A program made the position numbers and the translations under genes. A stretch of DNA of 64,000 nucleotides from Alphaproteobacteria bacterium (GTDB taxonomy: Bacteria; Pseudomonadota; Alphaproteobacteria; RF32; CAG-239): positions 1,986 to 65,985 of the forward strand of contig JAZNJJ010000023.1 in assembly GCA_045577985.1 (NCBI GenBank), read 5' to 3'. Positions 12,270 to 64,000 of the stretch are shown here, in pieces. How positions within the stretch are numbered: the first letter of the stretch is position 1; every line of letters begins with the position of its first letter. The notes below the pieces were generated by a model, which saw nothing but the letters and a program-made list of their open reading frames with translations, ran no database searches and had not been told where the DNA came from.

Positions 12270-12279
12270 ATTCCCCTCC

Positions 12280-15200
12280 TTACCATGTATAACGCATATG
12301 TCCACCAAATTCAAAACCGTTATAATCTGATCCGATTGTATAATTACCGAAACCACCAACGGTAAAGTTTGGCATTAGTGTTGCTTCTCCACCCATTTCT
12401 AAACGCACTGCTGTTTCATTTTGCAATGTGTCATCAATAGCAATATCTTTTATGGTAACCTCACCACCATTTTCTATTAATTGAATAATTGATGGTTTGA
12501 TATAACCTGTTGTTGGGTATTGTCTTTCATTATTAAACTGATATTCATATTTAACACCCAACTCTAATTCAATATCATGAATATCTTCTATGGTTACTTT
12601 TTTATCTAATGTATCAGTGAAATCATCAAAATTCACATAATCATACGAAACTCTCAAACTTGGAGTTATTGTTTCTCTTTTATTTAGACGAGATGTATAA
12701 CCTGTTTCAAATTGTAAACCTGTTGCTATACCAGATGTTGATGAACGGACATTCTCATCAGTATCCATACGGGCTTTTTGCTGTCCGCCATAAATAGATC
12801 CATTGAAATACATATTTCCAAAATATTTGCTATAATACAGACCTACAAGCACACTTTCCATATCCATTGTACGTGAACCATATGCAAAATAATCTCCATC
12901 TGATCCACCATCAGCATAATCGCCTTTTCGATATGAAACTACAAAACCTGTTTTTCCATTTGATGAGGTGTTTACATTTAATCCAAAATCTACACCCCAT
13001 ATCTTTGCATCAATTTCACTTGGAGCCTTAAATGTACTAATACGTGATATAGGATTTGCCCATAAACTTACTTTTGCATTTTCATCTACGACTTTTCGCA
13101 AAGTTCCTTTATAACCATATTCATAGCGAACTCGCGGAGTGTTATTATTTTTTGCCACATCATACATTACAGATCGAGTTTGTTCAACAGCTGCTCGTGG
13201 TAAAATGATATAGTTCAAAGCTTCTGTTCTTACAGCGCCACTTCGATATAAATACCAATCCATAACTCCATCGTGAACAGATGTTCCTTGTTCAATTATG
13301 AATACATAATTTTCTGAATCAAACACAAATGAAAAGTCTTCAGGATTTACATTTTCATTTGTCTGAGCAAAAGTAATTTTATGTCCTTTTTCTAATTGAT
13401 CTATTCCATCAAACGTAAAATTAGTTACTCCGGATACATTACCACTTATTACAATTTTATCTGATGTATTTTTATTTACATCAATATATACCCAACCACC
13501 ATTTGCCTCTAAATTAGTAACATTTATAGTTGATGATATACCATCTTTCAAATTCAGCACTCCGGAATGCGATAGTGTTTCCGCTAAAACAATATCCGGA
13601 GATGCCTCTGAACCAACATAATTAACAATTGCATCTGTGGTAATATTTAAGTTTGTTGCCGAAAATACATCTAAAGAATCTACATTTAAAACAGATGTTC
13701 CATTTAATGTTATCGAGCTATTAGCAAAATTTAATTTCTGAGCTCCATCAATTAAACCATTGTTTATCGTAAAATTCACCTCTTTGGCATATAATGAACC
13801 AGTTCCTTCAATATTAGAATTATAAAGGAATTCATTTTTATTCGTACCAAAAACATTTATTTCACCCAAATTATAAATATTATCAGTTGCTGTTTCAAAA
13901 TTTAATATTGATGTTCCGGATAATGTTAAATTAATTATCGAATCGGTATCATTATATATAGCTCCACCTTTTTCTGAAGCACTATTCCCTCTAAAAATTA
14001 TAGAATTTCCGCCATCAACATATAAATCTATTTTACTATTGTCAGTATTATATATTGCACCACCATTATCAGCAATATTATTTCCAAAACCTATTCCCGT
14101 ATTTGTAAATAATATAAATTCTCCGCCTGTGTTATATATTCCACCACCCAAAGAAGCTTTATTTTCTTTAATAACAACCTGAGAGGAGTTTGTATATTCC
14201 ATATTTACAACTCCGCTATTATAAATAGCTCCACCTCTTCCGGTTTTTGCATCATTCCAATTGAAAGCTACTGTTTTTACTTCATTTCCACTTATTTCTA
14301 TGTTTCCATCATTATAAATTGCACCACCATCAATGGCACTACCATCTGTTGCAACATTATAATTCATCATAATTTCTGCATTGTTATTCAAATCTATATG
14401 AAACGTTGCATTCTCTTTATTATAAATTGCACCACCTGCTTGAGAAACACTATTTTCTTTAAACTCCAAAGTTCCGTTTTCTACTGCAATATTTGTAACA
14501 GCTTTATTACTATTATATATCGCACCACCCATCTCTGCACTATTTTTAGAGAATGATAAAAATCCATCTTGCGCAACATTCATTTGCAAAAATGATGTTA
14601 CAGAATCAGTACCAACAGTTTTGCTACTATTATCTGCCAAATTATATATTGCGCCACCTTTTTGTGCGTAGTTCTCAGAAAAAACTATTTGATCTGTAGA
14701 AGCATCTATTTCAAGCTGTCCATATTGACCATTATAAATTGCGCCTCCCTTTGTTTCCGCCTCACCTGAAAAACCCGCATCTAAAACAGCTTTATTTCCA
14801 CTAAATACGATAGACCCTCTATCTCCTACGCCTATGTACATTTTAGAAATCTCATCAGTTATGGCATTATGGTATATTGCTCCACCATAAGCTTTTCCCT
14901 CTGTTGAATCCCCATATACTGTTATTACGTTATCTCTAAAAGATACTCCCGCAAGATTAACAGCGGTAGTATTTGTTGTTAGTGCATAAACAGCTAAACC
15001 ACCGCCTCGACCTTCTTTACTTACACCAATTTGATTACCCGTAATTGTTGAATTAGTTAAAGAAAAAGATGAAAAATCAGATGTGTGAGTATGATATATA
15101 CCTGCACCATTAGCATATTGAGAATTTATTCTATTAGAAGAAACTGTGATTCCACTAATATCCATAGAGCCTTTATTGTAAATAGCCCCACCATGCACAA

Positions 15201-15984
15201 GATAATAACCCGCCCCTGAAAGAGAATTATCTCGAGAAATAATTACATTGTTATTTGAGAAAGAGAGAGGATTTGCACCTCCATTAATAGCAACCTCGCC
15301 GGCAGAATATAAAACACCACCATTGATTTCCGTTGTACCATCGGTAGTTCCTGCTTCTCGTCTATCATAGATTGTTATAGTATTATCACTAAACGAAGTA
15401 CCGCCACCGATATCTAGGTCCTTAAATACATATTTCTGTGTTTGTTCTCCGGCAATACCTATAATACCACCGTTGATAATCATTTCACTATTAGGAACGT
15501 TAAGTTCTCCAGCTACAGTATTATTTGTGAAATTAGTAAAGTTTAATTTGATACGATTTGCATCCGTTGTATCTGTAACAAGACCTGTTGAGCTAATGAT
15601 ACCGCCGGAAATACCTTGATTTTCAAGAGATACCGTTTTATTAGAGATGTTATTATATGCTGAAACACTTCCTTCTATGGCTATTCTACCACCTTCATCA
15701 GCAACAAAAGATTTATTAGTCAGATTTATTTCTGATGTATAATTACCAACAAGTATCGCTGTATCGGAGACAGAAATTGTATAACTATCTCCAGAATCCC
15801 AATTATTCACACTTCCTTCTTCGACAGCCTTATCGTTTGGTATTATAATATTTTCAGCATTTGCACTTCCCGCAAATCCAAAGGCAAAAAACATTGCACC
15901 TAAGTTAATTAGAGCACATTTTTTTAACACATTACTGTACAGACGAATCAGCAAGCCACATGCGTGATTATGAGTTTTAGTCAT
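12280..15984 (-). CDS. Autotransporter (type Va) with a Pmp-type GGAIYN/FxxN repeat passenger, 1234 aa
   Basis: Signal peptide ..FGFAGSANA|EN, repeated GGAIYN motifs, and a beta-barrel ending in ..GGHMRYTW. AGGAGA RBS. It lies 10 nt upstream of its paralogue. Confidence 0.85.
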   Translation of the reverse strand: MTKTHNHACGLLIRLYSNVLKKCALINLGAMFFAFGFAGSANAENIIIPNDKAVEEGSVNNWDSGDSYTISVSDTAILVGNYTSEINLTNKSFVADEGGRIAIEGSVSAYNNISNKTVSLENQGISGGIISSTGLVTDTTDANRIKLNFTNFTNNTVAGELNVPNSEMIINGGIIGIAGEQTQKYVFKDLDIGGGTSFSDNTITIYDRREAGTTDGTTEINGGVLYSAGEVAINGGANPLSFSNNNVIISRDNSLSGAGYYLVHGGAIYNKGSMDISGITVSSNRINSQYANGAGIYHTHTSDFSSFSLTNSTITGNQIGVSKEGRGGGLAVYALTTNTTAVNLAGVSFRDNVITVYGDSTEGKAYGGAIYHNAITDEISKMYIGVGDRGSIVFSGNKAVLDAGFSGEAETKGGAIYNGQYGQLEIDASTDQIVFSENYAQKGGAIYNLADNSSKTVGTDSVTSFLQMNVAQDGFLSFSKNSAEMGGAIYNSNKAVTNIAVENGTLEFKENSVSQAGGAIYNKENATFHIDLNNNAEIMMNYNVATDGSAIDGGAIYNDGNIEISGNEVKTVAFNWNDAKTGRGGAIYNSGVVNMEYTNSSQVVIKENKASLGGGIYNTGGEFILFTNTGIGFGNNIADNGGAIYNTDNSKIDLYVDGGNSIIFRGNSASEKGGAIYNDTDSIINLTLSGTSILNFETATDNIYNLGEINVFGTNKNEFLYNSNIEGTGSLYAKEVNFTINNGLIDGAQKLNFANSSITLNGTSVLNVDSLDVFSATNLNITTDAIVNYVGSEASPDIVLAETLSHSGVLNLKDGISSTINVTNLEANGGWVYIDVNKNTSDKIVISGNVSGVTNFTFDGIDQLEKGHKITFAQTNENVNPEDFSFVFDSENYVFIIEQGTSVHDGVMDWYLYRSGAVRTEALNYIILPRAAVEQTRSVMYDVAKNNNTPRVRYEYGYKGTLRKVVDENAKVSLWANPISRISTFKAPSEIDAKIWGVDFGLNVNTSSNGKTGFVVSYRKGDYADGGSDGDYFAYGSRTMDMESVLVGLYYSKYFGNMYFNGSIYGGQQKARMDTDENVRSSTSGIATGLQFETGYTSRLNKRETITPSLRVSYDYVNFDDFTDTLDKKVTIEDIHDIELELGVKYEYQFNNERQYPTTGYIKPSIIQLIENGGEVTIKDIAIDDTLQNETAVRLEMGGEATLMPNFTVGGFGNYTIGSDYNGFEFGGHMRYTW

Positions 15985-27137: not shown

Positions 27138-27171
27138 ATGTCCGAAAAAAGGGTTCCTTTTTTTCGGACAT
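27138..27171. repeat. 34-nt palindrome A1, atgtccgaaaaaagggttcctttttttcggacat, followed by a T run
   Basis: Read directly from the sequence. It can form a hairpin of about 13 bp, and with the trailing T8 it also looks like the rppH terminator. Confidence 0.9.
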
Positions 27172-27242
27172 TTTTTTTATTAAAAATTCTTTCTTTCACA
27201 ACGTAACATCAATAAGTTAAATTTTTCTAAATTTGAAATTTT

Positions 27243-27275
27243 ATGTCCGAAAAAAAGGAACCCTTTTTTCGGACA
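27243..27275. repeat. Palindrome B1, the exact reverse complement of A1 (33 of 34 positions; only the terminal base differs)
   Basis: atgtccgaaaaaaaggaacccttttttcggaca. The asymmetric centre (A7-GGAACCC-T6 versus A6-GGGTTCC-T7) shows it is the inverted copy of A1. Confidence 0.9.
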
Positions 27276-27382
27276 ATCGCTGAGGGATAATATATATTAT
27301 AGTATATATTTTATCATTTTTTTAAGTTTTTACGGTATATTACTACTTATGTAGTGAGAGCCGTTTTGTGTAGAAGGAGATT

Positions 27383-28006
27383 ATGATGAATCATACTAAT
27401 CAATCCGGCAGATCTATGATTGAAATGCTCGGAGTTTTAGCGATTATCGGCGTATTGTCCGTTGGTGGAATCGCCGGTTATTCAAAAGCAATGATGAAGT
27501 TTAAAATTAATAAATCTATTGATCAAATTTCACAAATTGTGGCAAATACTCGTACACTTTATGCCAGACAGAAGAACTATGCTAACATTAGTAATAAAAT
27601 TATGTATAAAGCTAATTTAGCACCAAGAGAAATGTTTGAAGATGGTTCAGGTAGCTATTATGCAACCAATGCTTTTGGTGGTGGAGTAGAAATTTTCCCA
27701 ATTGGTTCAAAATTTTATGCTGAAAATGAAACAAATAAAGGATTTACCGTTGGATATTACGGACTTCCCGATGAAGCGTGTATTGAACTTGCAACACAAG
27801 ATTGGGGAAGTGATACATCTTCTGGTCTGTTAAGCGTTGGTATTAATACCGGTTCTGCTTGGGTAGGATGTCAAGGAGAGAATTATGGCAATCCACTAGC
27901 TTGCCCTGGTGGTTCAAATATATCTATTCCAATGCCTGTTGATATAGCGGTTGATGCATGTGATTGTGGGTATTCCGGATGTGATTTATATTTTTCTTAC
28001 AGGTAA
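27383..28006 (+). CDS. Type IV pilin-like protein (prepilin-type N-terminus), paralogue 1
   Basis: MMNHTNQSG|RSMIEMLGVLAIIGVLSVGGIAGYSKAM.. has a short polar leader ending in Gly, Glu at +5, and a hydrophobic helix of about 20 aa. The C-terminal part is Cys-rich (6 Cys). AGGAGA RBS. Confidence 0.7.
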   Translation: MMNHTNQSGRSMIEMLGVLAIIGVLSVGGIAGYSKAMMKFKINKSIDQISQIVANTRTLYARQKNYANISNKIMYKANLAPREMFEDGSGSYYATNAFGGGVEIFPIGSKFYAENETNKGFTVGYYGLPDEACIELATQDWGSDTSSGLLSVGINTGSAWVGCQGENYGNPLACPGGSNISIPMPVDIAVDACDCGYSGCDLYFSYR

Positions 28007-37616: not shown

Positions 37617-37696
37617 AAATTGTATGGATATATTTGAAATAAGAGTGTATCAAAAAGAAAGAATTTTATTTTAACTTGTTTTTATGTGAGGAAAAA

Positions 37697-37978
37697 GTGA
37701 CTAGATCTGAATTAACAGAAAGAATTGCAGCAAAAATGCCTAATTTAACTATTAAAGATATTGAAAATATCGTAAATGTTATTTTTGATAAACTTACATC
37801 TGCTTTGGTAGCTGGTGATAGAGTTGAGCTTCGTGGCTTTGGGGCATTTTCTATTAGAACAAGAAAACCAAGAATTGCTATCAATCCAAAAAATAAAAAA
37901 AGAGTAGAAGTACCTACAAAAAATATTGTTCACTTCAAAACCGGTAAAGAATTACACGATAGATTGAATGCAAAATAG
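37697..37978 (+). CDS. ihfB: Integration host factor subunit beta
   Basis: (M)TRSELTERIAAKMPNL..GDRVELRGFGAFSIRTRKPRIAINPKN..VHFKTGKELHDRLN. GTG start at 37697 after GAGGAAAAA. Confidence 0.85.
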   Translation: MTRSELTERIAAKMPNLTIKDIENIVNVIFDKLTSALVAGDRVELRGFGAFSIRTRKPRIAINPKNKKRVEVPTKNIVHFKTGKELHDRLNAK

Positions 37979-39361: not shown

Positions 39362-39397
39362 GAAACCCATTTTTGTATAATTATAAATTTTTTGTGT

Positions 39398-40264
39398 ATG
39401 GATTATGAATTTTTTGAAAAAACAGGACTTGTCTTGCAGACACAAGGCACCCGAAAATCTTTATTTAGATATAAAGACTTGGGCATAAAATTATCTCCAG
39501 TTCCCTTTGCCCAAAATGCATATTCTATTGATGTATATGAAGATGCAAATTTGATAGTTTGTGATGCAAGATATAATACTCTTGATGGAACATTGATAGA
39601 TTTTCACACAGATACTCATCCAATTAGTATTATTAAGTTGAAAGAAAATTGGCTGATATTAACTGAAAATTCTCTTTTTACCAAAAATAACATTAACTGT
39701 TTCATTTGGAGTGGCGCAAATATCTTACTATCTATGGGTGATCTCAAATCTGTTGTTCATTCTGACAAATATGTTGCAATGCTACGTCAAAATGAATGCC
39801 ATGTATATGACTATAATGCAAATAGATTAAGTAGGTTTCCTATTTTAGAAAATGAGCAAGTATTTATATACGGAGATCTAATTTATTGTAAAGCGTTGGG
39901 CAATTCATCATTAAGAAGTATTTCTAAAGACGAATTGTTGAAATCTAATCAGTTTTTGCTTGTATGTAGCAAAAAAGCTAATGGTTTTGCAATGTGCTCA
40001 TCTCTCAACAAAAAAGATATTGAGATTTATTATGACAAAACCTGGAGAACTGTTGAAAATGTTGCTTCATTTGGCTTGGTAGATAGTATTTCTGACGAAT
40101 TGGAATTATACTATATTGAACGAAATGGAAAGTTTTTTATTTATCATTTTAATGGCAATAGAGTATACAGCCAATTTGAAAATGGTCTTGATTATTTTAA
40201 GTACAATCCTAAAAACGGAACACTTTTTATAATCGCTGATGGTTTACCATATGTCTTAATTTAG
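39398..40264 (+). CDS. Hypothetical protein, tandem paralogue 1 (288 aa)
   Basis: I moved the start to the ATG at 39398. It shares blocks with the next gene (PV.FAQNA..I.VYED..L and ..GKFFIYHFNG..) and has its own promoter and terminator. Confidence 0.6.
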   Translation: MDYEFFEKTGLVLQTQGTRKSLFRYKDLGIKLSPVPFAQNAYSIDVYEDANLIVCDARYNTLDGTLIDFHTDTHPISIIKLKENWLILTENSLFTKNNINCFIWSGANILLSMGDLKSVVHSDKYVAMLRQNECHVYDYNANRLSRFPILENEQVFIYGDLIYCKALGNSSLRSISKDELLKSNQFLLVCSKKANGFAMCSSLNKKDIEIYYDKTWRTVENVASFGLVDSISDELELYYIERNGKFFIYHFNGNRVYSQFENGLDYFKYNPKNGTLFIIADGLPYVLI

Positions 40265-40271
40265 TAACAGC

Positions 40272-40301
40272 AAAGCCCGTAGATTAATCTACGGGCTTTT
40301 T
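40272..40301 (+). terminator. Strong rho-independent terminator
   Basis: aaagcccgtagat-ta-atctacgggcttt (13-bp stem) followed by Ts. Confidence 0.8.
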
Positions 40302-40303
40302 AG

Positions 40304-40331
40304 TTGACAAAAAAAATAAAAATGATATGAT
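40304..40331 (+). promoter_or_regulatory. Sigma70-like promoter, TTGACA-N16-TATGAT
   Basis: ttgaca at 40304-40309 and tatgat at 40326-40331, upstream of the 40367 gene. Confidence 0.4.
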
Positions 40332-40366
40332 ACCCACGATATCTTAATTATTTAAAAACTATTAGT

Positions 40367-41290
40367 ATGGTAAACAAATTTTTCAAAAATCGCCACTTGC
40401 TTCTCATGGGAAAATTCAGTGGACAGTTTTCGTTGTTTAAGACAAATGTATACGGCAAGGTTTTAGAACCTGTTGAATATGCACAAAATGCCAAAAAGAT
40501 TACAGTGTTTGAAGATGTTCATCTGGTTGCTGTAGATGAATGTTTGTATATGATAGACACAGGGCACTGTATTTGTGTATGCGACGTTCCTCACAAGCAG
40601 ATACGATGTAGTATTGTTGGGAGCAATGCTCTGATTGAAATGCATCGCCCTGAGGGTTTTGGCGAACCCGCATGTTATCTGATGATTTGGGATGGCAAAA
40701 ATATCATATTCAATACTAGTGCTGAAAAAGTACTCTCGTACAATGGTTATTTTACTATCCAAAAAGACGGAGAGTGGATACTTTATTCCGGAAACGGACA
40801 AATTGTGGCAAAAATGCCGGTTACCAGTACAACTGAACTTCCGCGTGTATCAAATGATTCGCTGATCATTCCGAAAGATGGAGAGTATGTTATTGCTAGT
40901 ATGTTAGCGGTGAAAGACAATCGCTTTACTGGACGAACAGCCTCAAAAGTGTGCTCATCATCTGAGTTGCAGTTCTTCATCTACAGGAATCTATCTGGTA
41001 GTGTGGTAACTTCTTTCTTTGAAGAAGAAAGTTGTATCGGTGGCGAAGAAATTGAGGATTTCGGCATTGTGCATGAAAAGTTAACCTTTTATTTTACCAA
41101 AAAAGGAGGAAAGTATTTTCTTTATCACTTTGGAGGTGCTCCTTATGATGGAAAAACAGACGAGTTCGGCAATGCTTTTGCTTTTGATTCTCTCAATGCA
41201 AAAAGCGTTCTCGATGACCCCGATACTGTTATTCTTGCAACCTCAGTTGACGGGGAATTGTCTATCTTACAATTCGGCACAAATCCTTAA
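40367..41290 (+). CDS. Hypothetical protein, tandem paralogue 2 (307 aa)
   Basis: Its similarity to the 39398 gene is PVEYAQNAKKITVFEDVHLVAVDE versus PVPFAQNAYSIDVYEDANLIVCDA, and GGKYFLYHFGG versus NGKFFIYHFNG. Confidence 0.6.
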   Translation: MVNKFFKNRHLLLMGKFSGQFSLFKTNVYGKVLEPVEYAQNAKKITVFEDVHLVAVDECLYMIDTGHCICVCDVPHKQIRCSIVGSNALIEMHRPEGFGEPACYLMIWDGKNIIFNTSAEKVLSYNGYFTIQKDGEWILYSGNGQIVAKMPVTSTTELPRVSNDSLIIPKDGEYVIASMLAVKDNRFTGRTASKVCSSSELQFFIYRNLSGSVVTSFFEEESCIGGEEIEDFGIVHEKLTFYFTKKGGKYFLYHFGGAPYDGKTDEFGNAFAFDSLNAKSVLDDPDTVILATSVDGELSILQFGTNP

Positions 41291-42677: not shown

Positions 42678-45600
42678 TTACCAAATTTCGTCATACCTCA
42701 AACTTGGATCATTTAAACGCTCCAGATAACCGTCAGCATTTTCTTTGACATAAGAGGTTGAAACATTGTTCATATTATCATATTGATCAATATATTTTCT
42801 AGCAACATCATTATTATAACTTTCCGGATAAATACCCGTTCTATCAAAGTAGCAATAAGTTGAAGCAAATCCCTCGAGACTTTTACGTTTAACAGGGAAT
42901 ACATTCCAATACATTACATCAGTTGTACTCTTTTTATATTCAGGAGCTTTTAATTTATCATTATCCTTTCCATTTATGTTTTCTACTACATCTTTATATC
43001 TATCTGACGGATACAAGAAACCCATCAATACAGCCCAACCAGAAACATATCCACCAGAGATATTACCACTAAGAGTATCTTCAAGAGATGTAGGTTGTCC
43101 TACAATTACGGGAACTTGAGCTGTTTTTAACCATGTACTTTGTTGGAAAACAAACGGTCGTAATGTTTTATCGGTTGCTGTTGAGAATACATAAGCCGGA
43201 CCGCTTACGTTTACTGTATTTCCATCTTCATCCTTACTTTGATAATCTATTTGAGCACTCAAACCTTCTATATTAGAAACAGATAATTTAGTATTATTTA
43301 ATTTTGTTGTACTTGCAGTAGTCTCATCTGTTACTGTCATAGATACACTATTCTCTCCTGCAGGTTTTATATTAACTGTGCTGTATTCAGGCAATTTTGC
43401 ACTATCTTTTAATAATGTACCTAATGTACCATCAGCTGGAGCCATATATCCTTCATCTACATAATAACTATTTTGGTGATTAGATGATGGATTACTGGTA
43501 TTATTTTGTGATAGTGAACCGGCTTGAGCCATTTGGAAATTAGATGGAGTTACTGTCAGCACACGCATATATCCCGGTGGACATTGTGGTGCAGGCACTA
43601 TACCGGTATATGGAGATCCCCAAGAAGTGACTGTTGACAGCTCGTCATCTTTATAGACCAAATCTGCATCCGATTTACCACCTACATTTGCAGTTAGAAC
43701 ACCTTTATCAACTGTTGCATCTGTTATCTTGAATTCTGTAATTATATCTTTTTTAGAGTTATTGACAATGTATATACCCTTATTGATGAAATCCGGTAAA
43801 ATATCACTTAAACGGGCTCCACCGCGAGTAGTTAGCTTGATATCATGCATAACTGATGTATAAGCAGGGTTAACCATATATGTATCATATCGGTTAGTTT
43901 TATCGCTAGCATTGTACGTTGAATATTCGCCATTTTGGAGAAGGTCTGGAACTTTATAGGCTTCTGCTCCATCATAATTGTTATTAGCAACAAAACGGCT
44001 TGCTTTGATTATTCCGTCATTTGCGCTATTTTCGTCTGAATAATCCCCCATTACTTCAAGAGCACCTTTACGGACATATACTGTTCCTCCCTTCAATTCG
44101 TCATGAACTGTATTTATAGAAGCAGTGTCATCACCACTAGCGGTTACCGGTATTGTCTGATCTACGACAAAAACACTCCCTTCAGAATTTGCTCCGGAAT
44201 TTGTTACAATATTGACACCGGCACCCGGATCATACTTACCTACAGACATATGTTTTGTATAAACACGTGTATCACCAACAAGTTCACCTTCATTGGTAAA
44301 TATTATGTCTCCATGAAATGCAGCATCATATCCCTTAACAGTAATAGTTTCTCCTTCTTCTTCACCTTCTGTTGTTTTATCATAAAGTAAACTATCATTA
44401 TAATTCTCGGAATACTTTTCTTCCTTATAATCATTACCACGAATAGCAAATATGCTACGAACATTATTATCTTTATCTCTTCGCATTATTTTGAAATTTG
44501 AATCGAGCAAATCAACATTTCCTCCGTCAACAATAGTTCTATAGTTTACGGCAAAATCCTTATCTGCAAGCTTATTTAAGCCGGAAATTTTTAATTCATT
44601 ATTGACTATTTGGGTTTCGATTAAATCATTGCGGATTGAAATTTCTCCTGAATGAACACTTTCTGCCCCCGGTATACCATGGGCGTCTAACACAATGGAA
44701 CTGGCTCCGGCGAAAATTTCACCTTCGTATTGACTATTATCGCCAATACGATTTTCTCTATCACGTAATAATAACTGTGTTTGGTGATTCGTAGTTAAAC
44801 GATTATTAGCATCTGTTGGGGAAATACCAACATCTGTTGCCTTACCACGACGAAGAGCTATAACATTATTGTTTACTTTAACTTGATTACCTATTTCTTC
44901 TTCTGTATGATCGGTATCTTCAATATTTACACCATTGGCATCAACTTTAAGCCATTGATATTGATCATCAACATGTGTTGAACCAACACTTAAAGTAGAA
45001 GTGCGAAGTCTGTTGGTATCAATTTGTGATGCAGATAATAATGCCTCAACCTGCATATTGGAACCAACTTTAATAGGAAATTCTTGTTCAACATTATATT
45101 GAACCTCTTCAATTGCATTTGATGTAGGTATTTCGTTTCCTTCCTCATCAACTTCGCCACTCATCACTTTGACACCACTATATATCTCGCGTCCTAAAAT
45201 TAAACGAGATTTATCTGTATCGGTTCCCTTGGCGTATGCTACAAACATATTTGGATCTAATAAACTTAACTGAGCTCCTCTATCTGAATTAGTTTTTGCC
45301 CTAATCACGTAAGCATTGTCAAACTCTGAGGTCAATTCACTATCATAATAACCTATTTTAATATCGCCGGCATCAAAAAACTCTGTAGCAAGGTTAAGAT
45401 TACCGGTATTTTTAATATCTCCATCAGGGTTAACCTCAAATCTATAGCCTTCAGCTTCTTGTTGATACCCATATCCCATCAGGTTCATACCGGCAAAGAA
45501 ATTTGACCATCCGGCACGAAGAGCACCACCAATATAAGCACTGTGAGAACCTCCTTCTGTCATAGCTTCGTTACCATTTAAGTACAATCCATAATTTCTA

Positions 45601-46412
45601 TCTTGACCGTCAGGTATCTTTTCAACACCGACAATTAAACTTTTAATATTACGAATACTGTATACAGAGCCTTTACCTTCTTTAGCTTCTTTTGGATCAT
45701 AATCATCAAATCCGCCCATATAAATATCCGTACGCATGGTGTTTTCCCATTCTTGACCAGGGGCATATACACGACTTAAGTATTTATAGTTCTCTGTTTC
45801 ACTTGCTCCACCTCCTTCAGTTATGGTTTCAGAAGATGCCGTAACGATTGAATACTGATGAGCACCCGTTCCTTCTGCACCAAAAACCGTATTGTATTGG
45901 TTATTATCTAAAGACCAAATACCACCAATACCTCGAGCTGTATTTTCGCCATTTACATAACCACCATTTGCCCCAATTAATGATGCAATCTTAGCTGTTC
46001 TTTCTTGGCCAATACCCTGCTCTGCATCTGCTTCAGCAGGAAATAAGACAAATGTTGTTAAATTGTTTCCATTTTTATGAACTTTAATAACTGGAGTACC
46101 ATAATTATATAGTGCCTTATCAACATTAAAATTATATGGCAGAAAAAGTTTAAGTTGTGTAGCTTCAACAGTAGCTACAGGATTAGCGCTTTCAAGGAGA
46201 GTTTTATAGTTTGATGCAACATATGAATCCGCAGCATTCATAATGGTACGAACCGTTGTTGCGGTATTAATATCCTCAACTTCCATTGTTCGTTCTGCAG
46301 ATTTTTTATACATGGTAGGTGTTACTACCGCTATAAGACCAAGCATAGCAAGGGCTTCAATCATTAAGCCACCCTTTTCTGCTATAGATTTTCTTAAATT
46401 ATATTTTTTCAT
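42678..46412 (-). CDS. Giant protein of 1244 aa with a type IV prepilin-like N-terminus. It may be a pilus-associated adhesin or tip protein.
   Basis: MKKYNLRKSIAEKG|GLMIEALAMLGLIAVVTPTMY.. has a basic leader ending in Gly, Glu at +5, and a hydrophobic helix. The xxMIExL core is the same as in the two small pilin-like genes. AAGGAGA RBS. The remaining about 1200 aa is G/N/T/D/Y-rich and predicted extracellular, with two Cys near the C-terminus. Confidence 0.7.
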   Translation of the reverse strand: MKKYNLRKSIAEKGGLMIEALAMLGLIAVVTPTMYKKSAERTMEVEDINTATTVRTIMNAADSYVASNYKTLLESANPVATVEATQLKLFLPYNFNVDKALYNYGTPVIKVHKNGNNLTTFVLFPAEADAEQGIGQERTAKIASLIGANGGYVNGENTARGIGGIWSLDNNQYNTVFGAEGTGAHQYSIVTASSETITEGGGASETENYKYLSRVYAPGQEWENTMRTDIYMGGFDDYDPKEAKEGKGSVYSIRNIKSLIVGVEKIPDGQDRNYGLYLNGNEAMTEGGSHSAYIGGALRAGWSNFFAGMNLMGYGYQQEAEGYRFEVNPDGDIKNTGNLNLATEFFDAGDIKIGYYDSELTSEFDNAYVIRAKTNSDRGAQLSLLDPNMFVAYAKGTDTDKSRLILGREIYSGVKVMSGEVDEEGNEIPTSNAIEEVQYNVEQEFPIKVGSNMQVEALLSASQIDTNRLRTSTLSVGSTHVDDQYQWLKVDANGVNIEDTDHTEEEIGNQVKVNNNVIALRRGKATDVGISPTDANNRLTTNHQTQLLLRDRENRIGDNSQYEGEIFAGASSIVLDAHGIPGAESVHSGEISIRNDLIETQIVNNELKISGLNKLADKDFAVNYRTIVDGGNVDLLDSNFKIMRRDKDNNVRSIFAIRGNDYKEEKYSENYNDSLLYDKTTEGEEEGETITVKGYDAAFHGDIIFTNEGELVGDTRVYTKHMSVGKYDPGAGVNIVTNSGANSEGSVFVVDQTIPVTASGDDTASINTVHDELKGGTVYVRKGALEVMGDYSDENSANDGIIKASRFVANNNYDGAEAYKVPDLLQNGEYSTYNASDKTNRYDTYMVNPAYTSVMHDIKLTTRGGARLSDILPDFINKGIYIVNNSKKDIITEFKITDATVDKGVLTANVGGKSDADLVYKDDELSTVTSWGSPYTGIVPAPQCPPGYMRVLTVTPSNFQMAQAGSLSQNNTSNPSSNHQNSYYVDEGYMAPADGTLGTLLKDSAKLPEYSTVNIKPAGENSVSMTVTDETTASTTKLNNTKLSVSNIEGLSAQIDYQSKDEDGNTVNVSGPAYVFSTATDKTLRPFVFQQSTWLKTAQVPVIVGQPTSLEDTLSGNISGGYVSGWAVLMGFLYPSDRYKDVVENINGKDNDKLKAPEYKKSTTDVMYWNVFPVKRKSLEGFASTYCYFDRTGIYPESYNNDVARKYIDQYDNMNNVSTSYVKENADGYLERLNDPSLRYDEIW

Positions 46413-46441: not shown

Positions 46442-47176
46442 TTATAGATTATTTTCATACTCATCTCTTATTTCTTCACAATATCTACCAATATCTGATC
46501 TGCGTAATTCAGTATATGCAAAAAAGCAAGGTACGCCTGATAACTTGCACTCTTCATTAAATGTAGTATTTGCCCATATTACAGAATTTGGAATGATTAC
46601 ACCCTCTTTTCTCTTTGTTCCAATACCGACTAGCTTACATGTATCATCCTCGCAATCTGCCCAACCGTATATTGTTCCAAAATCAGAATTCTTTGATAAG
46701 AAATTATTTAGCATTGGAATTGGAGCTATCTCATCTTTCCTAACCCATCTTTCGGGAATTTTTGCAAATGATACACCATAATATCTTCCTGCGGTTGATC
46801 CAATTACAACTGCTTGATCGGTCTCATCAATTTTTTTGTTTAACGGATAAACAAAATGATTAACCTTTAAGACACTTTCATCTATACTGTAACCAATAGG
46901 AAGATTTTGTGCAAATGCAGTATATCCAAAGTCAACATCTGACTGAATAGGACAACCGTCTTCTGTGGTACATAAATCTCGCCAGTTGCCATTACTAGTA
47001 TTATTTACAATTTCACATCTCATGGTACCCGTAAAGGCGCTATGCTCCATCTTAAAACGATTTACGATTATTGAGGTCTTTGCTTCATTAATATAATTTT
47101 CTTTATCTGCACGCGGAGAGATGTTATAGAAGCTAAAAGCTACCATAATAGTTGCTAATAATATCCAAATATACAT
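46442..47176 (-). CDS. Cys-rich protein of 244 aa with an N-terminal hydrophobic anchor, co-transcribed with the giant pilin-like gene
   Basis: MYIWILLATIMVAFSFYNI.. anchor and 9 Cys in the predicted exported part. GGGAGA RBS. It ends 29 nt upstream of the 1244-aa gene. Confidence 0.6.
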   Translation of the reverse strand: MYIWILLATIMVAFSFYNISPRADKENYINEAKTSIIVNRFKMEHSAFTGTMRCEIVNNTSNGNWRDLCTTEDGCPIQSDVDFGYTAFAQNLPIGYSIDESVLKVNHFVYPLNKKIDETDQAVVIGSTAGRYYGVSFAKIPERWVRKDEIAPIPMLNNFLSKNSDFGTIYGWADCEDDTCKLVGIGTKRKEGVIIPNSVIWANTTFNEECKLSGVPCFFAYTELRRSDIGRYCEEIRDEYENNL

Positions 47177-55038: not shown

Positions 55039-55647
55039 ATGAGTTATGGAACAACTGAACTAACCGAGTTAGTATGCACTAGAATAAGCCATGATTTAAT
55101 TGGAAATATAGGGGCTATTTCTAGCGCACTAGAACTAATTGAAGAAAATGATAATATTTTAGATGATGATACAAAAGCCATATTAAATACTGGAGCAAAC
55201 ACCTTAAGAGCAAGACAAAAATTTTTTAGATTGGCTTTCGGTATTGATTCAAAAAAATGTGACATGACGGAATTATTAAGCGTTTGTGAGGACTATTTAA
55301 CAACGATTGGAAATAGAAATAATCCTATAAAATTGAATTTATCTCAAGTATCTTCTGAAATTGCAAAATTTGTTTGTTTGGGAATAATGTGTGCTGCAGA
55401 AGTATTTATTAAAAGCGGAGAAATATCTGTAGCAATGAATAAAAATAATATGATTATTAAGGCTGTTTCTGACTATAAATTTTCAGCGAATAAAATAGCA
55501 ATTTATAATGATATTATTAATGGTGAAAAACCTAGCGAAAATGCCTCTCAATATGTGCAATTAATTTACTTAAAAGAATTACTTGGAGCAGATGTTCCAT
55601 TGTCATTGCAAACTACTGAAAATGAATTTTTACTAATAGTCGGATAA
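55039..55647 (+). CDS. chpT: Histidine phosphotransferase ChpT
   Basis: LVCTRISHDLIGNIGAISSALELIEE and FFRLAFG match the ChpT HPt/DHp-like region (compare Caulobacter LAARLCHDFISPASAI..FTRVAFG). The length is about 200 aa. Confidence 0.85.
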   Translation: MSYGTTELTELVCTRISHDLIGNIGAISSALELIEENDNILDDDTKAILNTGANTLRARQKFFRLAFGIDSKKCDMTELLSVCEDYLTTIGNRNNPIKLNLSQVSSEIAKFVCLGIMCAAEVFIKSGEISVAMNKNNMIIKAVSDYKFSANKIAIYNDIINGEKPSENASQYVQLIYLKELLGADVPLSLQTTENEFLLIVG

Positions 55648-55662
55648 ATCAACTACAAACTT

Positions 55663-55690
55663 AAAACTCTGTAAAATACAGAGTTTTTTT
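55663..55690 (+). terminator. Terminator after chpT
   Basis: aaaactctgta-aaa-tacagagtttt followed by a T run. Confidence 0.8.
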
Positions 55691-55704
55691 TATAGAAATT
55701 AAAA

Positions 55705-55738
55705 ATGTCCGAAAAAAGGGATCCTTTTTTTCGGACAT
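55705..55738. repeat. 34-nt palindrome A2, atgtccgaaaaaagggatcctttttttcggacat
   Basis: It is identical to A1 except for the central base (T to A) and is followed by a T run. Confidence 0.9.
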
Positions 55739-55810
55739 TTTTTATGTAAAAATCAAATTCAAATTCATAATAAAATCAACAATTTAAATTTCAAGTGAAA
55801 AATGAATTTT

Positions 55811-55843
55811 ATGTCCGAAAAAAAGGATCCCTTTTTTCGGACA
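55811..55843. repeat. Palindrome B2, the exact reverse complement of A2
   Basis: atgtccgaaaaaaaggatcccttttttcggaca. It is identical to B1 except for the complementary central base (A to T). Confidence 0.9.
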
Positions 55844-55861
55844 AAGATAGAGGAGTTTAAT

Positions 55862-56485
55862 ATGAATAAAATGTGTAGAACCACAAACCAAACTGGTCGT
55901 TCAATGATTGAAATGCTTGGAGTTTTGGCGATTATAGGCGTGTTATCTGTGGGTGGTATTGCTGGCTATTCCAAAGCAATGATGAAATTTAAAATAAATA
56001 AAACAATCGACCAAATTTCACAAATGGCTCAAAATACTCGGACGTTATACGCTAGACAAAGAAATTATGGTAATTTAAGTTCCAGAATTTTATATAAAGC
56101 TAATTTAGCTCCTCGAGAAATGTTTGAAGGAGGCTCTGGAGATTATAGCATGACTAATGCTTTTGGTGGATCCGTTGATATTGGAACGCGTGGCAAAAAT
56201 GTTGATGGCGATAATAAAGCATTTTTTATTCATTTCAATGGCTTGCCAGAAGAAGCGTGTATAGAATTAATGACACAAGACTGGGGAAGTGATACAGGTT
56301 CCGGATTAATTGCTGTTGGTACTTTTAATGTTTCATTTTATTATGTTGGATGCTCCGGAGATGCTGATAGGGGTATAGCTTGTCCAGGGGGAGCAGAAGT
56401 ATCGGTACCAATGCCTGTTGATGTGGCGGTTGATACTTGTAATTGCAGTGAAACAGGATGCACTTTTGAACTTAAGTATTATTAA
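55862..56485 (+). CDS. Type IV pilin-like protein, paralogue 2
   Basis: MNKMCRTTNQTG|RSMIEMLGVLAIIGVLSVGGIAGYSKAMMKFKINK.. I moved the start from 55802, because the track ORF reads through palindrome B2, to the ATG at 55862, which follows GAGGAG. The C-terminus is Cys-rich, as in paralogue 1. Confidence 0.7.
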   Translation: MNKMCRTTNQTGRSMIEMLGVLAIIGVLSVGGIAGYSKAMMKFKINKTIDQISQMAQNTRTLYARQRNYGNLSSRILYKANLAPREMFEGGSGDYSMTNAFGGSVDIGTRGKNVDGDNKAFFIHFNGLPEEACIELMTQDWGSDTGSGLIAVGTFNVSFYYVGCSGDADRGIACPGGAEVSVPMPVDVAVDTCNCSETGCTFELKYY

Positions 56486-63272: not shown

Positions 63273-64000
63273 ATGCAATGTAAATTTGTATATGAAGTGT
63301 TTTATGCTGTTTGTTTGTTTTTTTTCATGTTACTTAGTAGCATTAGCACAGCTCAGGCTTCTGCTAATATAAAAGAAATGAGAATTGGTAATCAGGCAAA
63401 CGGAACACGCATTGTTTTTGAAATTGATAAAAAAGTTAATTATCGTACATTTTTGTTAGATACTCCTAAAAGACTAGTTGTTGATTTTGATGATGTAAAT
63501 ATCGGAAAAATGTTTACCGGTGCCACGAATCACATTATTGCAAAAACAAGAGTTGGAAAACTTGAAAATAATAGTAAGCGTATTGTTTTTGAATTAGCAC
63601 AAACATCTATCATAAAAAAAGCATTCACTCTTCCTCCGCAAAGTGGAAAACCTTGGAGATTGGTTATTGATGTACAACCTGATTCTGAAAATAGTTTCAA
63701 AAAACATTTAGGTAATAAGCATGCATTTACAAATGACACAGCCTTTCAACCCAAAGACAGTAAAGAAAGTAACAGTTGGTGGGCTTCTTCGGACGTAACT
63801 TCAAACAAAAATACAAAAAGAAAAAAAATTATTGTTTTGGATCCCGGACATGGTGGAAAAGACCCCGGTGCAATTGGTGCTTATGGTAAGACATATGAAA
63901 AAAATATTACTTTAGCTATGGCGAGAGAACTCCGAGCAACATTAAAGAAAAAGGGATATATTGTATATTTAACACGAGATAAAGACGTATTTATTCCTTT
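63273..64000 (+). CDS. amiC: N-acetylmuramoyl-L-alanine amidase (AMIN domain plus Amidase_3). It is partial and continues past the right edge.
   Basis: Manual translation gives a signal peptide, then [43 protein letters not shown] (AMIN), then [29 protein letters not shown] (the start of Amidase_3). Confidence 0.85.

Follow-up and report, generated by a model that had tools for sequence, protein, structure and literature searches.

Introduction

The type 1 fimbriae of Escherichia coli are switched by fimS, a 314-bp segment with 9-bp inverted repeats, which is acted upon by the locally encoded tyrosine recombinases FimB and FimE together with IHF and Lrp. IHF bending is needed to bring the two sites of fimS together. 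The hix and gix sites used by Hin and Gin are near-palindromes with A-tracts in their arms, and each is bound by a recombinase dimer. Partner sites must have complementary central dinucleotides, one strand reading AA at one of them and TT at its partner; hix sites measure 26 bp (12-2-12) and a Fis-bound enhancer is needed. E. coli also contains BIME-1/RIP elements, which carry an IHF site between two units. In the case of the capsular polysaccharide promoters of gut Bacteroides, a single trans-acting recombinase, the serine recombinase Mpi, serves all promoters, and deletion of this recombinase locks their orientations (10.1101/2022.10.31.514637). REPINs consist of inverted imperfect palindromes, most often 71 bp apart, whose orientation can be told from a TT/AA centre; they leave behind long palindromic singlets when their central part is excised, and hundreds of copies lie across extragenic space (PMC3337134). 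The Correia elements of Neisseria are inverted-repeat-bounded units of ~100–155 bp with an internal IHF site, end promoter activity, RNase III-sensitive hairpin transcripts and modulation of adjacent genes (PMC2649163).

Here, we analysed two paralogous pilin loci in a 64-kb window (the whole stretch of DNA under analysis), each with two palindromes, A and B, on either side of an AT-rich core. The initial annotation held that no described element has this architecture. This was too strong, as two near-palindromic inverted sites around a short segment are the standard layout of a recombinase-driven inverton. We propose, with a probability of roughly 60%, that a miniature invertible promoter switch of this type stands before each pilin paralogue, the recombinase being encoded elsewhere. 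The pilin switch is most likely a variant of a known general kind, phase variation by inverton, that is new in form.

Results

Inverted palindromes at two pilin loci

A repeat search detected inverted arms of 33 nt with 100% complementarity at both loci, at 55706–55738/55811–55843 with 72 nt between them (locus 1) and at 27139–27171/27243–27275 with 71 nt between them (locus 2). The start-to-start spacing of the arms is 106 at locus 1 and 105 at locus 2. These A/B pairs are by far the strongest short-range inverted repeats of the window, and both the coordinates given by the initial annotation and its description of B as an inverted copy of A were borne out. Every arm is itself a near-perfect palindrome, in the form A6-GGGWTCC-T7 for A and A7-GGWWCCC-T6 for B. 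When up to three mismatches were allowed, the 34-mer matched only four positions of the window (A1, B1, A2 and B2), with 0 expected from 100 shuffles; neither further copies nor half-sites were found in the window besides these four sites. The coordinates are collected in Table 1.

Table 1. Features of the two pilin loci and of the IHF/HU-family gene in the window
Feature	Position	Strand	Remarks
Site A1, outer-left putative crossover site	55705..55738	.	34-bp near-palindrome ATGTCCGAAAAAA - GGGATCCT - TTTTTTCGGACAT
Core of locus 1, AT-rich, 72 nt, presumed promoter-bearing	55739..55810	.	
IHF-consensus core AATCAACAATTTA (WATCAANNNNTTR), locus 1	55774..55786	+	Starts at A1–B1 centre midpoint 55774.5
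Site B1, pilin-proximal putative crossover site	55811..55844	.	Reverse complement of A1; centre AGGATCCC
Pilin paralogue 1 (207 aa), resembling type IVb (PilS/Bundlin) pilins	55862..56485	+	Prepilin leader MNKMCRTTNQTG, followed by RSMIEML
Site A2, centre GGGTTCCT	27138..27171	.	With T8 run after it: terminator-like hairpin, plus strand
Core of locus 2, 71 nt	27172..27242	.	Homologous to locus 1 core, same orientation
IHF-like core CATCAATAAGTTA, locus 2, 12/13 to consensus	27207..27219	+	Starts at A2–B2 centre midpoint 27207.0
Site B2, centre AGGAACCC (reverse complement of A2 centre)	27243..27276	.	107-nt leader, then start codon
Pilin paralogue 2, 207 aa, 64.7% identity with paralogue 1	27383..28006	+	
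IHF/HU-family gene, best match IHF subunit beta	37676..37978	+	Bac_DNA_binding; NF001222 IHF-beta 112.5 bits, cut-off 115 just missed

Between the two loci, the palindromes differ by one base each, and this base forms a mirrored centre (AT/AT at locus 1 and TT/AA at locus 2), in agreement with the single mirrored difference first reported. The spacers of the two loci match in 42 of 73 aligned columns, compared with 65 of 67 in the palindromes (Fisher p = 1e-8), and a recount of the coding DNA next to the palindromes again gave synonymous differences between the paralogues at 14 of 33 codons. The spacers are thus loosely similar around a shared block, as had been noted; the block MATCAAYAAKTTA occurs only at 27207–27219 and 55774–55786 in the window (0.19 expected). 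The suggestion that the palindromes are selected, or homogenised within each locus, fits the mirrored centre, because two crossover sites need a mirrored centre to stay compatible.

The shared block coincides with a predicted IHF site with an AT-rich 5' flank, matching the consensus ATCAA-N4-TTA at 13/13 positions in locus 1 and 12/13 in locus 2, against a background of ~11 matches per 64 kb, both strands counted. In the spacer alignment, the columns that never vary (ATCAA, one A within N4, and TTA) are those of the IHF consensus. The IHF-beta-like gene of the window is a possible architectural partner outside the element itself.

We then considered the secondary structure and the transcription signals of the region. 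A1 together with the T-run after it was terminator-like on both strands in a terminator scan, its hairpin having a predicted stability of −20.4 kcal/mol (z −5.2); the two stable hairpins have predicted energies of −20.4 and −15.8 kcal/mol. At both window loci, stem A is GC-containing and is followed by a T-run, as in a predicted intrinsic terminator, and on the plus strand this T-run consists of the first bases of the core. B1 has no T-run after it and ends 17 nt ahead of the start codon and ~6 nt ahead of a GAGGAG Shine–Dalgarno sequence. In the minimum free energy structure predicted for the region as a whole (−57.5 kcal/mol, z −8.1), A forms a duplex with B; only A and B pair, the spacer contributing 12 weak A-U pairs. 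A comparison with Rfam gave nothing above threshold, the sub-threshold matches being to generic long-hairpin (plant miRNA precursor) models. Both downstream genes matched Pfam PilS and Bundlin in a profile search; gene callers mis-start these pilin genes at an ATG within site B.

The best sigma70-like match in the core of locus 1, TTGAAA-16-TATTAT, lies on the minus strand from 55794 to 55767 and in the window orientation faces away from the pilin gene. A further sigma70-like core match was TTGCAA-16-TATTAT. Such matches were no commoner than in shuffles, and the strand of the best match differs between spacer types. No recombinase gene is encoded in the 64-kb window. Three other kinds of regulatory or mobile site were compared with the loci and rejected: a sigma54 promoter with an upstream activator site and IHF, as there is no GG-N10-GC promoter in or after B; a pap-like Dam/CcrM methylation switch with two GATC ~102 bp apart, as locus 2 has GTTC/GAAC and neither centre is GANTC; and an integron attC-like site, as each end is self-complementary, not pairing only with the other end, and the genes are dispersed singly.

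Pilin linkage and conservation in related strains

The lineage comparison covered nine distinct loci in ~140 kb of non-redundant related-strain DNA. The palindromes lie upstream of pilin paralogues at 9/9 loci and nowhere else in this DNA, and all of its pilin genes with upstream sequence available have the palindrome. Scattered unpaired copies, for which the initial annotation had proposed a search of related DNA, were accordingly not encountered in these ~140 kb. The inverted repeats lie 17–107 nt upstream of the pilin start codons, with B ending 17–18 nt from the start codon in most loci and 107 nt from it at window locus 2. When GTDB representative genomes, JGI metagenomes and IMG/VR were scanned for the exact pattern, only six unrelated hairpins in high-GC organisms came up; together with the pilin linkage of all lineage copies, this ruled out a generic REP or terminator repeat. 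The distant pilin loci L026 and L027 (40% GC) have neither the palindrome nor inverted repeats, indicating that the element is lineage-specific.

In all copies compared, the site consists of invariant ~13-bp arms (ATGTCCGAAAAAA) flanking an 8-bp centre, giving the lineage pattern TGTCCGAAAAAA...TTTTTTCGGACA. All variation is central and falls on positions 14, 17/18 and 21. Two inverted arms with a matching centre between partners, as in a crossover site, are thus found in the sequence, with L024b as a mismatched case. Reverse complementarity between partner centres is exact in the window loci, L010/L011, L017–L023, L025 and L028/L029, and L025 provides a second locus with a mirrored TT/AA centre. 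This rule is broken in L024 (8283/8388, L024b), where both palindromes are B-type and their centres differ, and in L016, where the inner half of the first palindrome reads CCC-T6 and not CC-T7. The original statement that B is the exact reverse complement of A therefore holds for the window and most related loci, but not for L024 and L016. At stem pair 14/21, all four combinations occur (G-C, G-T, A-T and A-C), and the pilin-proximal copy nearly always has the A-C mismatch form on the mRNA strand.

The spacers at three paralogous loci are homologous and in the same orientation (alignment z 12.4, 5.8 and 6.1), and the core is 71–72 nt long at all loci, including those of spacer type S4. The S4 spacer no longer aligns overall, yet it keeps TTCAATATGTTA at the same spacer positions. 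It was rejected as an inverted form of S1–S3, since neither orientation gave a significant alignment and the conserved core block has kept its strand. At locus 3 (L017), the start of a divergent acetyltransferase gene lies 14 nt to the left of A, the Shine–Dalgarno sequence of that gene being 3 nt from the palindrome, and the pilin gene starts 17 nt to the right of B. With the palindromes and the 14–17-nt leaders set aside, hardly any space beyond the 71-nt core is left for promoters.

Natural inversion and single-site alleles

Two contigs from separate samples, L028 (ERZ28593733/SAMN18817780) and L029 (ERZ28594204/SAMN18817768), contain the same locus with the same pilin (P0127). Their flanks are identical over 200 nt on the left and 650 nt on the right, and A and B are unchanged. 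Their 72-nt cores are exact reverse complements of each other apart from 2 SNPs, L029 having the flipped form. The spacer concerned is that of window locus 1, here present at its sister locus. Both spacer orientations thus occur naturally with unchanged flanks, in one case at the level of assemblies, and this precise inversion backs the invertible, phase-variable promoter listed among the first candidate functions. Counted in assemblies, 1 of the ~17 contigs in which the spacer is visible was inverted and 16 were forward (14 with the full spacer). As the T-run consists of the first core bases, it is lost from A in the L029 orientation.

In near-identical strains, single-palindrome, spacer-less alleles exist at the same locus, and filled and empty alleles were both found. 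The single-site allele L003, A6-GGGATCCC-T6, is composed of the outer arm of A and the outer arm of B. Such alleles look like crossover products, with the exception of L002 (G...T), which is not a simple centre-crossover product. The L003 strain also carries a chromosomal inversion with its junction at the palindrome; the first ~215 nt of the L003 and L010 paralogues are nearly identical, so the exact crossover point cannot be fixed. The L003 pilin was ruled out as an L010 allele, with only 72% identity beyond residue 69.

A related contig with two palindrome-linked pilins, L024, encodes a Mpi-family master DNA invertase (292 bits; NCBIfam equivalog cut-off 272). This gene is adjoined by its own unrelated inverted repeats (AAACGTTCGT core) in the AA/TT arrangement; the Mpi-type ARACGTWCGT core is present beside it and absent from the window. 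To judge from these repeats, the Mpi-like enzyme of L024 may not act on the pilin sites.

Discussion

Proposed mechanism of the pilin switch

We propose that a ~34-bp recombinase crossover site is present twice, as A and as B, in inverted orientation. The invariant ~13-bp arms would bind a recombinase dimer, strand exchange would take place in the 8-bp centre, and the mirrored centre (AT/AT at locus 1, TT/AA at locus 2) would reflect the compatibility requirement of the two crossover regions. An IHF-type protein, presumably binding at ATCAA-N4-TTA, would bend the 72-bp core into a U-turn that lets sites 105–106 bp apart synapse, and a recombinase from outside the window would flip the core. 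The core would carry promoter signals as well as the T-run that makes A a terminator, so that its orientation would decide pilin transcription. The inversion seen between L028 and L029 would be programmed. The prevalent orientation, which is that of the window, may equally well be OFF or ON. The main argument for this mechanism is the L029 inversion, joined by the site anatomy, the mirrored centre, the constant core length, the IHF-like core, the pilin linkage, the single-site alleles, the geometry of locus 3 and the Mpi-family gene of the lineage. Against it speak the single inverted contig among ~17, the window's lack of a recombinase gene, the separate repeats of the Mpi-like gene, the sigma70-like matches at shuffle level, the two mismatched doublets, the L002 allele and a core that, to our knowledge, is shorter than any characterised invertible promoter.

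Alternative explanations

Instead, ordinary expression control might be what conserves the palindromes, as hairpins or as protein-binding sites, with A and its T-run acting as an insulating terminator, B as an mRNA-stabilising 5'-UTR stem, and the flip in L029 being an incidental RecA or template-switch event between neighbouring inverted repeats or an assembly error. This is unlikely, even though A is terminator-like at both window loci, both hairpins are stable, B ends close to the start codon in most loci, and the four combinations at stem pair 14/21 could represent steps of a compensatory path. With selection for an RNA stem, the A-C mismatch would be expected in the opposite copy and not in the pilin-proximal one, and B at window locus 2 lies far from the start codon (107 nt). 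Moreover, covariation would be tolerated in a stem, but the arms do not vary at all, in contrast to the diverging UTR, spacer and synonymous sites, and the fixed 71–72-nt spacing, the midpoint core and the mirrored loop bases are left without explanation. The combination of a terminator in A with a 5' hairpin in B, put forward in the initial annotation, thus describes real side-properties of the element but accounts for neither the inversion nor the fixed spacing nor the central conserved block. It is hardly credible that pairing of A with B in read-through transcripts, in the form of a 33-bp dsRNA stem, sets the fate of pilin mRNA through RNase III processing. The A:B duplex is indeed the minimum free energy fold of the region, and such processing is known for Correia elements (PMC2649163); however, A with its U-run should end transcription before B is made, the A:B complementarity is broken in L024b and L016, and the inversion would again go unexplained.

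Two further explanations take the paired arrangement as their starting point. A dimeric regulator could use A and B as operators bracketing the pilin promoter, with an IHF-type bend closing a repression loop similar to that of the gal operon and with no inversion function. The two identical dyad-symmetric sites, separated by 105–106 bp from centre to centre (~10 helical turns) at a spacing constant across loci, the IHF-like core that begins at the midpoint, and a strict conservation typical of protein recognition would all suit such a regulator. We nevertheless consider it improbable: it predicts neither the precise L029 inversion nor the single-site alleles, a symmetric dimer favours perfect palindromes whereas the asymmetry is systematic (outer arm A6GGG, inner arm A7GG), and no regulator candidate is linked to the loci. 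Paired operators are possible only as an add-on role. Very improbable, too, is a selfish REPIN- or MITE-like element (Correia- or BIME-1-like) that is mobilised by a RAYT or transposase and adjoins pilin genes by co-duplication. The architecture closely parallels that of REPINs (PMC3337134), near-identical strains have single-palindrome alleles at one and the same locus, and Correia elements likewise have an IHF site between terminal inverted repeats (PMC2649163). Against it stand the position of 9/9 loci immediately upstream of pilin genes with 0 elsewhere in ~140 kb, a spacer that, unlike REPIN spacers, is not self-complementary, the lack of a Y1 transposase or RAYT at any retrieved locus, and the absence of the element from GTDB representatives, JGI metagenomes and IMG/VR. 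There is also no target-site duplication, the junction bases of locus 2 being inverted (TT vs AA) and not directly duplicated; together with the pilin linkage of all copies, this speaks against the MITE-like cassette suggested earlier. Taken as the sole function, REPIN/MITE, operator and hairpin fit less well than an inverton.

Implications of a proposed inverton at each pilin gene

A broader form of the inverton proposal, which we offer only tentatively, is that invertons smaller than any known, with a 72-bp core and an IHF U-turn, form a family across the genome and stand before each of at least nine type IVb pilin paralogues. If this is true, the AT and TT/AA centre classes should not inter-recombine, restricting locus partners, and symmetric AT-centre sites would also mediate deletion of the core, which would explain the single-site alleles. 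AT-centre sites would further recombine between loci, swapping promoter and pilin units and inverting a chromosomal stretch estimated at 17–20 kb, as in the L003 strain. The switch of locus 3 may toggle between the pilin and the divergent sugar O-acetyltransferase-like gene.

Pili serve as adhesins and as receptors for phages. Strains with 99.5% identical flanks have strongly different pilin alleles, suggesting strong diversifying pressure. If the proposed switch is real, an uncultured low-GC alphaproteobacterial lineage of the animal gut phase-varies a large type IVb pilin family with one switch per gene. The combination of a 72-bp core, 34-bp palindromic sites and a midpoint IHF-type motif would set a lower size limit for site-specific inversion and would give a compact model in which an architectural bend replaces DNA length. 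Such elements could escape inverton finders that depend on longer cores.

Comparison with known systems

Correia elements share with the pilin loci their inverted-repeat bounds and an internal IHF site, which is predicted here, but they are MITEs that occur in high copy number, have TA duplications and are not tied to particular genes, and core flipping is not known for them. REPINs also have two inverted imperfect palindromes, ~71 bp apart as in this study; however, they are dispersed, have hairpin spacers and are served by RAYTs, whereas the pilin element occurs in few copies, beside one gene family, and has a spacer that is not self-complementary. With Hin and Gin, the loci have in common the AA/TT arrangement, seen at locus 2, in L025 and in the Mpi-type repeat pair of L024, but the sites are 34 bp long, leave no room for an enhancer and enclose an IHF-like motif in the core. 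A tyrosine recombinase with a lox/FRT-like 13-8-13 site fits the pilin sites equally well as a Hin/Gin-type enzyme. As in fimS, a (putative) invertible promoter precedes a fimbrial or pilus structural gene, although here with a 72-bp core, palindromic sites of 33–34 bp, at least nine copies and no adjacent recombinase. The Mpi system of Bacteroides differs from the present loci, which serve a type IVb pilin gene family in an alphaproteobacterium, have a core of just 72 bp and carry repeats (TGTCCGAAAAAAGGG...) unrelated to the Mpi-type core. In both cases, dispersed surface-structure loci each have their own short segment, a promoter in Bacteroides and a putative one here, flanked by inverted repeats, most copies are in one orientation, and a Mpi-family gene above the NCBIfam equivalog cut-off is present in this lineage as well.

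Inverted-repeat pairs upstream of two pilin-like genes

Based on direct reading and an inverted-repeat search of the window, we identified two pairs of 33-nt inverted repeats with 100% complementarity, one pair upstream of each pilin-like gene, as the initial annotation had reported. By a wide margin, these were the strongest short-range inverted repeats of the window. Every arm is in itself a near-perfect 34-bp palindrome, referred to here as site A or, on the pilin-proximal side, site B; the spacer between them is the core. At ≤3 mismatches, the 34-mer was found at the four arm positions only (0 expected), and the 15-nt half-site was likewise confined to the four palindromes. The comparison of the two loci in that annotation was confirmed: a single, mirrored base differs in each palindrome, and 14 of the 33 codons for an identical peptide differ synonymously. 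Its contrast between loosely similar spacers and conserved palindromes also held, with 42 of 73 columns matching in the spacers versus 65 of 67 in the palindromes (Fisher p = 1e-8).

Both downstream genes are type IVb pilin-like, as judged from their Pfam matches, and belong to a very large family (at least 7,947 relatives), of which the named relatives come from uncultured Alphaproteobacteria MAGs. The window (G+C content, 32.7%) carries ordinary housekeeping genes, including recA, accB/accC-like, ftsH, ruvC, RNase E and ChpT-like genes, while profile searches detected no pilus machinery, transposase or recombinase encoded within its 64 kb. The ChpT-like gene lies directly 5′ of locus 1 and resembles the alphaproteobacterial cell-cycle phosphotransferase, with NCBIfam scores that are weak and below threshold; the gene has a terminator of its own, so that site A is the second hairpin downstream of it. 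Elsewhere in the window, two adjacent, very large proteins with Chlamydia PMP repeats and autotransporter beta-domains represent further variable surface proteins, and several sizeable ORFs showed no Pfam match.

Coordinates of the repeat arms, associated genes and other features in the window and in contig L024
Feature	Sequence	Position	Strand	Details
Repeat arms, locus 1	window	55706-55738 and 55811-55843		72 nt between; start-to-start 106
Repeat arms, locus 2	window	27139-27171 and 27243-27275		71 nt between; start-to-start 105
IHF-type motif, locus 1	window	55774-55786		13/13 consensus positions
IHF-type motif, locus 2	window	27207-27219		12/13 consensus positions
Pilin-like gene, locus 1	window	55862-56485	plus	Pfam PilS and Bundlin matches
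Pilin-like gene, locus 2	window	27383-28006	plus	Pfam PilS and Bundlin matches
IHF-beta-like gene	window	37676-37978		IHF-beta profile match just under the cut-off
ChpT-like gene	window	55039-55647		
Terminator of ChpT-like gene	window	55663-55687		
PMP/autotransporter proteins	window	7707-12359 and 12280-15984	minus	1550 and 1234 aa; listed ORFs overlap by 80 nt
ORF lacking a Pfam match	window	42678-46412	minus	1244 aa
ORFs lacking a Pfam match	window	39392-41290 and 46442-47176		
Second repeat pair beside Mpi-like gene	L024	14596-14629 and 14683-14716		34-nt imperfect inverted repeats; 53 nt between

Distribution of the palindrome

An exact-pattern scan with TGTCCGAAAAAA-N6-10-TTTTTTCGGACA yielded only six unrelated hairpins of high-G+C organisms in the GTDB representative genomes and JGI metagenomes, and zero matches in IMG/VR. 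These hairpins (contigs L001 and L005-L009) have identical stems and different loops, with L005 equal to L007 and L009 similar, and are probably terminators unrelated to the pilin-linked element. The element itself was present in ENA metagenome contigs that carry genes for close relatives of these pilins. In approximately 140 kb (estimate) of non-redundant lineage contigs with nine distinct loci, all palindromes sit 5′ of a pilin-like gene, and every pilin-like gene with available upstream sequence has one or two of them. In a more distant species (contigs L026/L027, 40% G+C) with the same pilin N-terminus, both the palindrome and the inverted repeat were absent. Taken together, these results indicate that the element is pilin-linked and lineage-specific.

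In L026, a leader of about 900 nt 5′ of the pilin gene contains approximately three tandem repeats of ~101 nt (9367-9660) and G+C-rich, structured-looking stretches without the palindrome. Many metagenome contigs (L004, L012, L014, L015, L016, L022 and L024) start inside the palindrome or spacer (L012 about 50 nt upstream of the palindrome); such ends are expected for a multi-copy inverted repeat, and equally for samples in which the two orientations occur together.

Anatomy of the sites and the core

The arms ATGTCCGAAAAAA and TTTTTTCGGACAT are invariant in all copies except for the outermost base. All site variation lies within the central 8 bp, at positions 14 (G/A), 17/18 (AT, TT or AA) and 21 (T/C), giving a 13-8-13 layout or, described differently, two 16-nt arms with a central dinucleotide. 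In the usual doublet, A6GGG forms the outer arm and A7GG the inner arm of each site, which makes B the reverse complement of A. Exceptions to this mirror rule are L024b (both sites of B type, their centres being AT and AA), L016 (first site ending CCC-T6) and L012 (proximal site A7-GGATCC-T7). L025 carries a second TT/AA doublet with a spacer of type S2, from which it follows that the mirrored centre of locus 2 was inherited as a unit.

The spacer measures 71-72 nt at all loci. Spacer types S1, S2 and S3 are homologous in one orientation (z = 12.4, 5.8 and 6.1); type S4 (L016, L012) showed no overall alignment to them and retains TTCAATATGTTA at unchanged spacer positions. Site A resembles a terminator when read together with the spacer's first T-run, and B is without a T-run. 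B ends 17-18 nt 5′ of the start codon at most loci and 107 nt at window locus 2. Gene callers place pilin starts either on the in-frame ATG within palindrome B or on ATGAATTTT immediately upstream (window 55802/55811-55861; proteins P0001, P0008 and P0012), which adds spurious N-terminal residues (MSEKKDPFFRT..., MNFMSEKK...); the correct start at locus 1 is 55862, with GAGGAG 6 nt upstream.

Alignment of six doublets revealed invariant spacer columns including ATCAA, one A within N4, and TTA. This block matches the IHF consensus WATCAANNNNTTR at both window loci, beginning at the midpoint between the site centres (55774.5 at locus 1; 27207.0 at locus 2), against a background of ~11 matches in 64 kb (both strands counted), equivalent to roughly 1% for each spacer. 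The bend in the IHF-DNA structure is centred a few bp 5′ of WATCAA, which would place the predicted bend within ~3 bp of the element dyad.

Natural variants of the doublet

Contigs L028 and L029, from two samples, both carry a sister locus 1′ (glycosyltransferase gene, doublet and pilin P0127). This pilin is also encoded on a 75,924-nt contig, equal in length to the one that bears both window pilins; locus 1′ is therefore probably part of the contig from which the window was taken, past position 64000. The left flank (200 nt) and right flank (650 nt) are identical and A and B are unchanged, while reverse-complementing the 72-nt L028 core yields that of L029 exactly, apart from 2 SNPs. The forward orientation was found in sixteen other contigs, with the whole spacer in 14 of the 16; the evidence for inversion is one inverted example at the assembly level. 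Judged from the assemblies, an artefact seems unlikely, because with repeats of 33 nt an assembly k-mer above ~35 fixes the orientation from reads.

Two close strains have single-site alleles of locus 1, with one palindrome and no spacer. The site of L003 is a perfect A6-GGGATCCC-T6, made up exactly of the outer arms of A and B; that of L002 is A6-GGGATCC-T7. In L003 (1-20618), the left flank matches the window at 99.5% identity as far as 55737, with only 83% identity in the pilin region; farther on, the contig follows the window in reverse from 64000 back to 61888 (99%), indicating a chromosomal inversion of an estimated 17-20 kb with one junction at the locus 1 palindrome/pilin 5′ end. Its other end lies at an inverted sister pilin locus past the window end. 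The simplest single event would be recombination of site A at locus 1 with site B of the inverted locus 1′, which would give the observed hybrid site; we infer the crossover point, since near-identity of the two paralogues also extends over their first ~215 nt.

Among strains with ~99.5% identical flanks, the pilin coding sequence is hypervariable: amino-acid identity is 80.5% between locus 1 alleles (window versus L003 10001-10618) and 63.5% between locus 2 alleles (window versus L013 74-694), with the 5′ UTR and first ~70 codons nearly identical. This pattern suggests cassette-like replacement or diversifying selection.

Recombinase genes in the window and the lineage

No recombinase is encoded in the window. 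Contig L024, which has two palindrome-linked pilins and shares its sample with L002 at similar coverage, encodes a 220-aa protein assigned to the NCBIfam 'master DNA invertase Mpi family' (292 bits versus an equivalog cut-off of 272), whose structural relatives are resolvase and invertase structures. Outside its own cluster, the nearest relatives of this protein share only ~63% identity, and the contig is low-GC alphaproteobacterial. The second repeat pair beside this gene has a Bacteroides-type AAACGTTCGT core and AA/TT centres, lies 5′ of a glycosyltransferase gene and is probably a second, different mini-inverton; its 53 nt contain a promoter-like TTGCCT-16-TATATT (region 14596-15320). The Mpi-family gene and the adjoining mini-inverton-like pair suggest that this lineage plausibly uses DNA inversion. 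However, the pilin sites bear no relation to these Mpi-type repeats, and the Mpi-family protein may not act on them.

Proposed mechanism and alternatives

Most likely, A and B are crossover sites of a site-specific recombinase and the core flips. An IHF-type U-turn at the core centre would permit synapsis of sites just 105-106 bp apart, after which the core would invert. The mirrored centre would represent the compatibility condition of strand exchange. Serine invertases use a 2-bp overlap that reads AA at one site and TT at its partner; tyrosine recombinases use an overlap of 6-8 bp, to which the condition applies equally. A symmetric AT centre would let the sites align either way, in agreement with deletion-type single sites at the AT-centred locus only (two cases).

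At locus 3 (L017 7732-8669; also L018-L023), the gene to the left of A is divergent, encodes a hexapeptide-repeat, sugar O-acetyltransferase-like product and begins 14 nt from this site; its Shine-Dalgarno sequence is 3 nt from the palindrome, mirroring the pilin side, where the gene starts 17 nt right of B. Besides the palindromes and short leaders, the 71-nt core is the sole room for promoters, and this switch could toggle between the two genes. The data suggest that the core carries expression signals, including a putative promoter. For S1 and S3, the best sigma70-like match (TTGAAA or TTGCAA, 16 nt, TATTAT) is on the minus strand, directed away from the pilin gene in the prevalent orientation and toward it in L029; S2 has its best match on the opposite strand, and promoter-like matches in the core are not above chance frequency. 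The T-run of terminator A is part of the core, and A loses it upon flipping. From locus 3 geometry, the minus-strand match and the core-borne T-run, the chance that the prevalent (window) orientation is OFF appears about even.

Terminator and stem properties are real, as expected if A were simply a terminator and B a 5′ stem; such hairpins leave the invariant arms, fixed spacing, central motif and flip unexplained, and the mRNA-strand form of B contains an A-C mismatch. An A:B RNA duplex cleaved by RNase III agrees with the minimum-free-energy fold, but A should stop transcription first. No Rfam family matched the element. Paired regulator sites brought together by looping would account for the spacing and for the IHF motif, yet leave the inversion and systematic asymmetry unexplained.

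REPIN/MITE elements provide a strong architectural parallel (PMC3337134); however, this explanation fails on copy distribution, spacer folding and target duplication. A generic REP-type element, the refutation anticipated in the initial annotation, was ruled out by strict pilin linkage in the ~140 kb and restriction to the lineage: the related contigs searched contained pilin-linked copies only.

Comparison with known systems

As crossover sites flanking an invertible core, the pilin doublets would be most like the Bacteroides multi-locus invertible promoters served by Mpi, and fimS, in function. In site design they resemble hix/lox-type crossover sites, and in shape REPIN/BIME-1 elements. New are the host lineage, the association with a family of type IVb pilins and, as read from sequence, the proposed use of 34-bp palindromes as sites and a 72-bp core with a putative central IHF-type motif.
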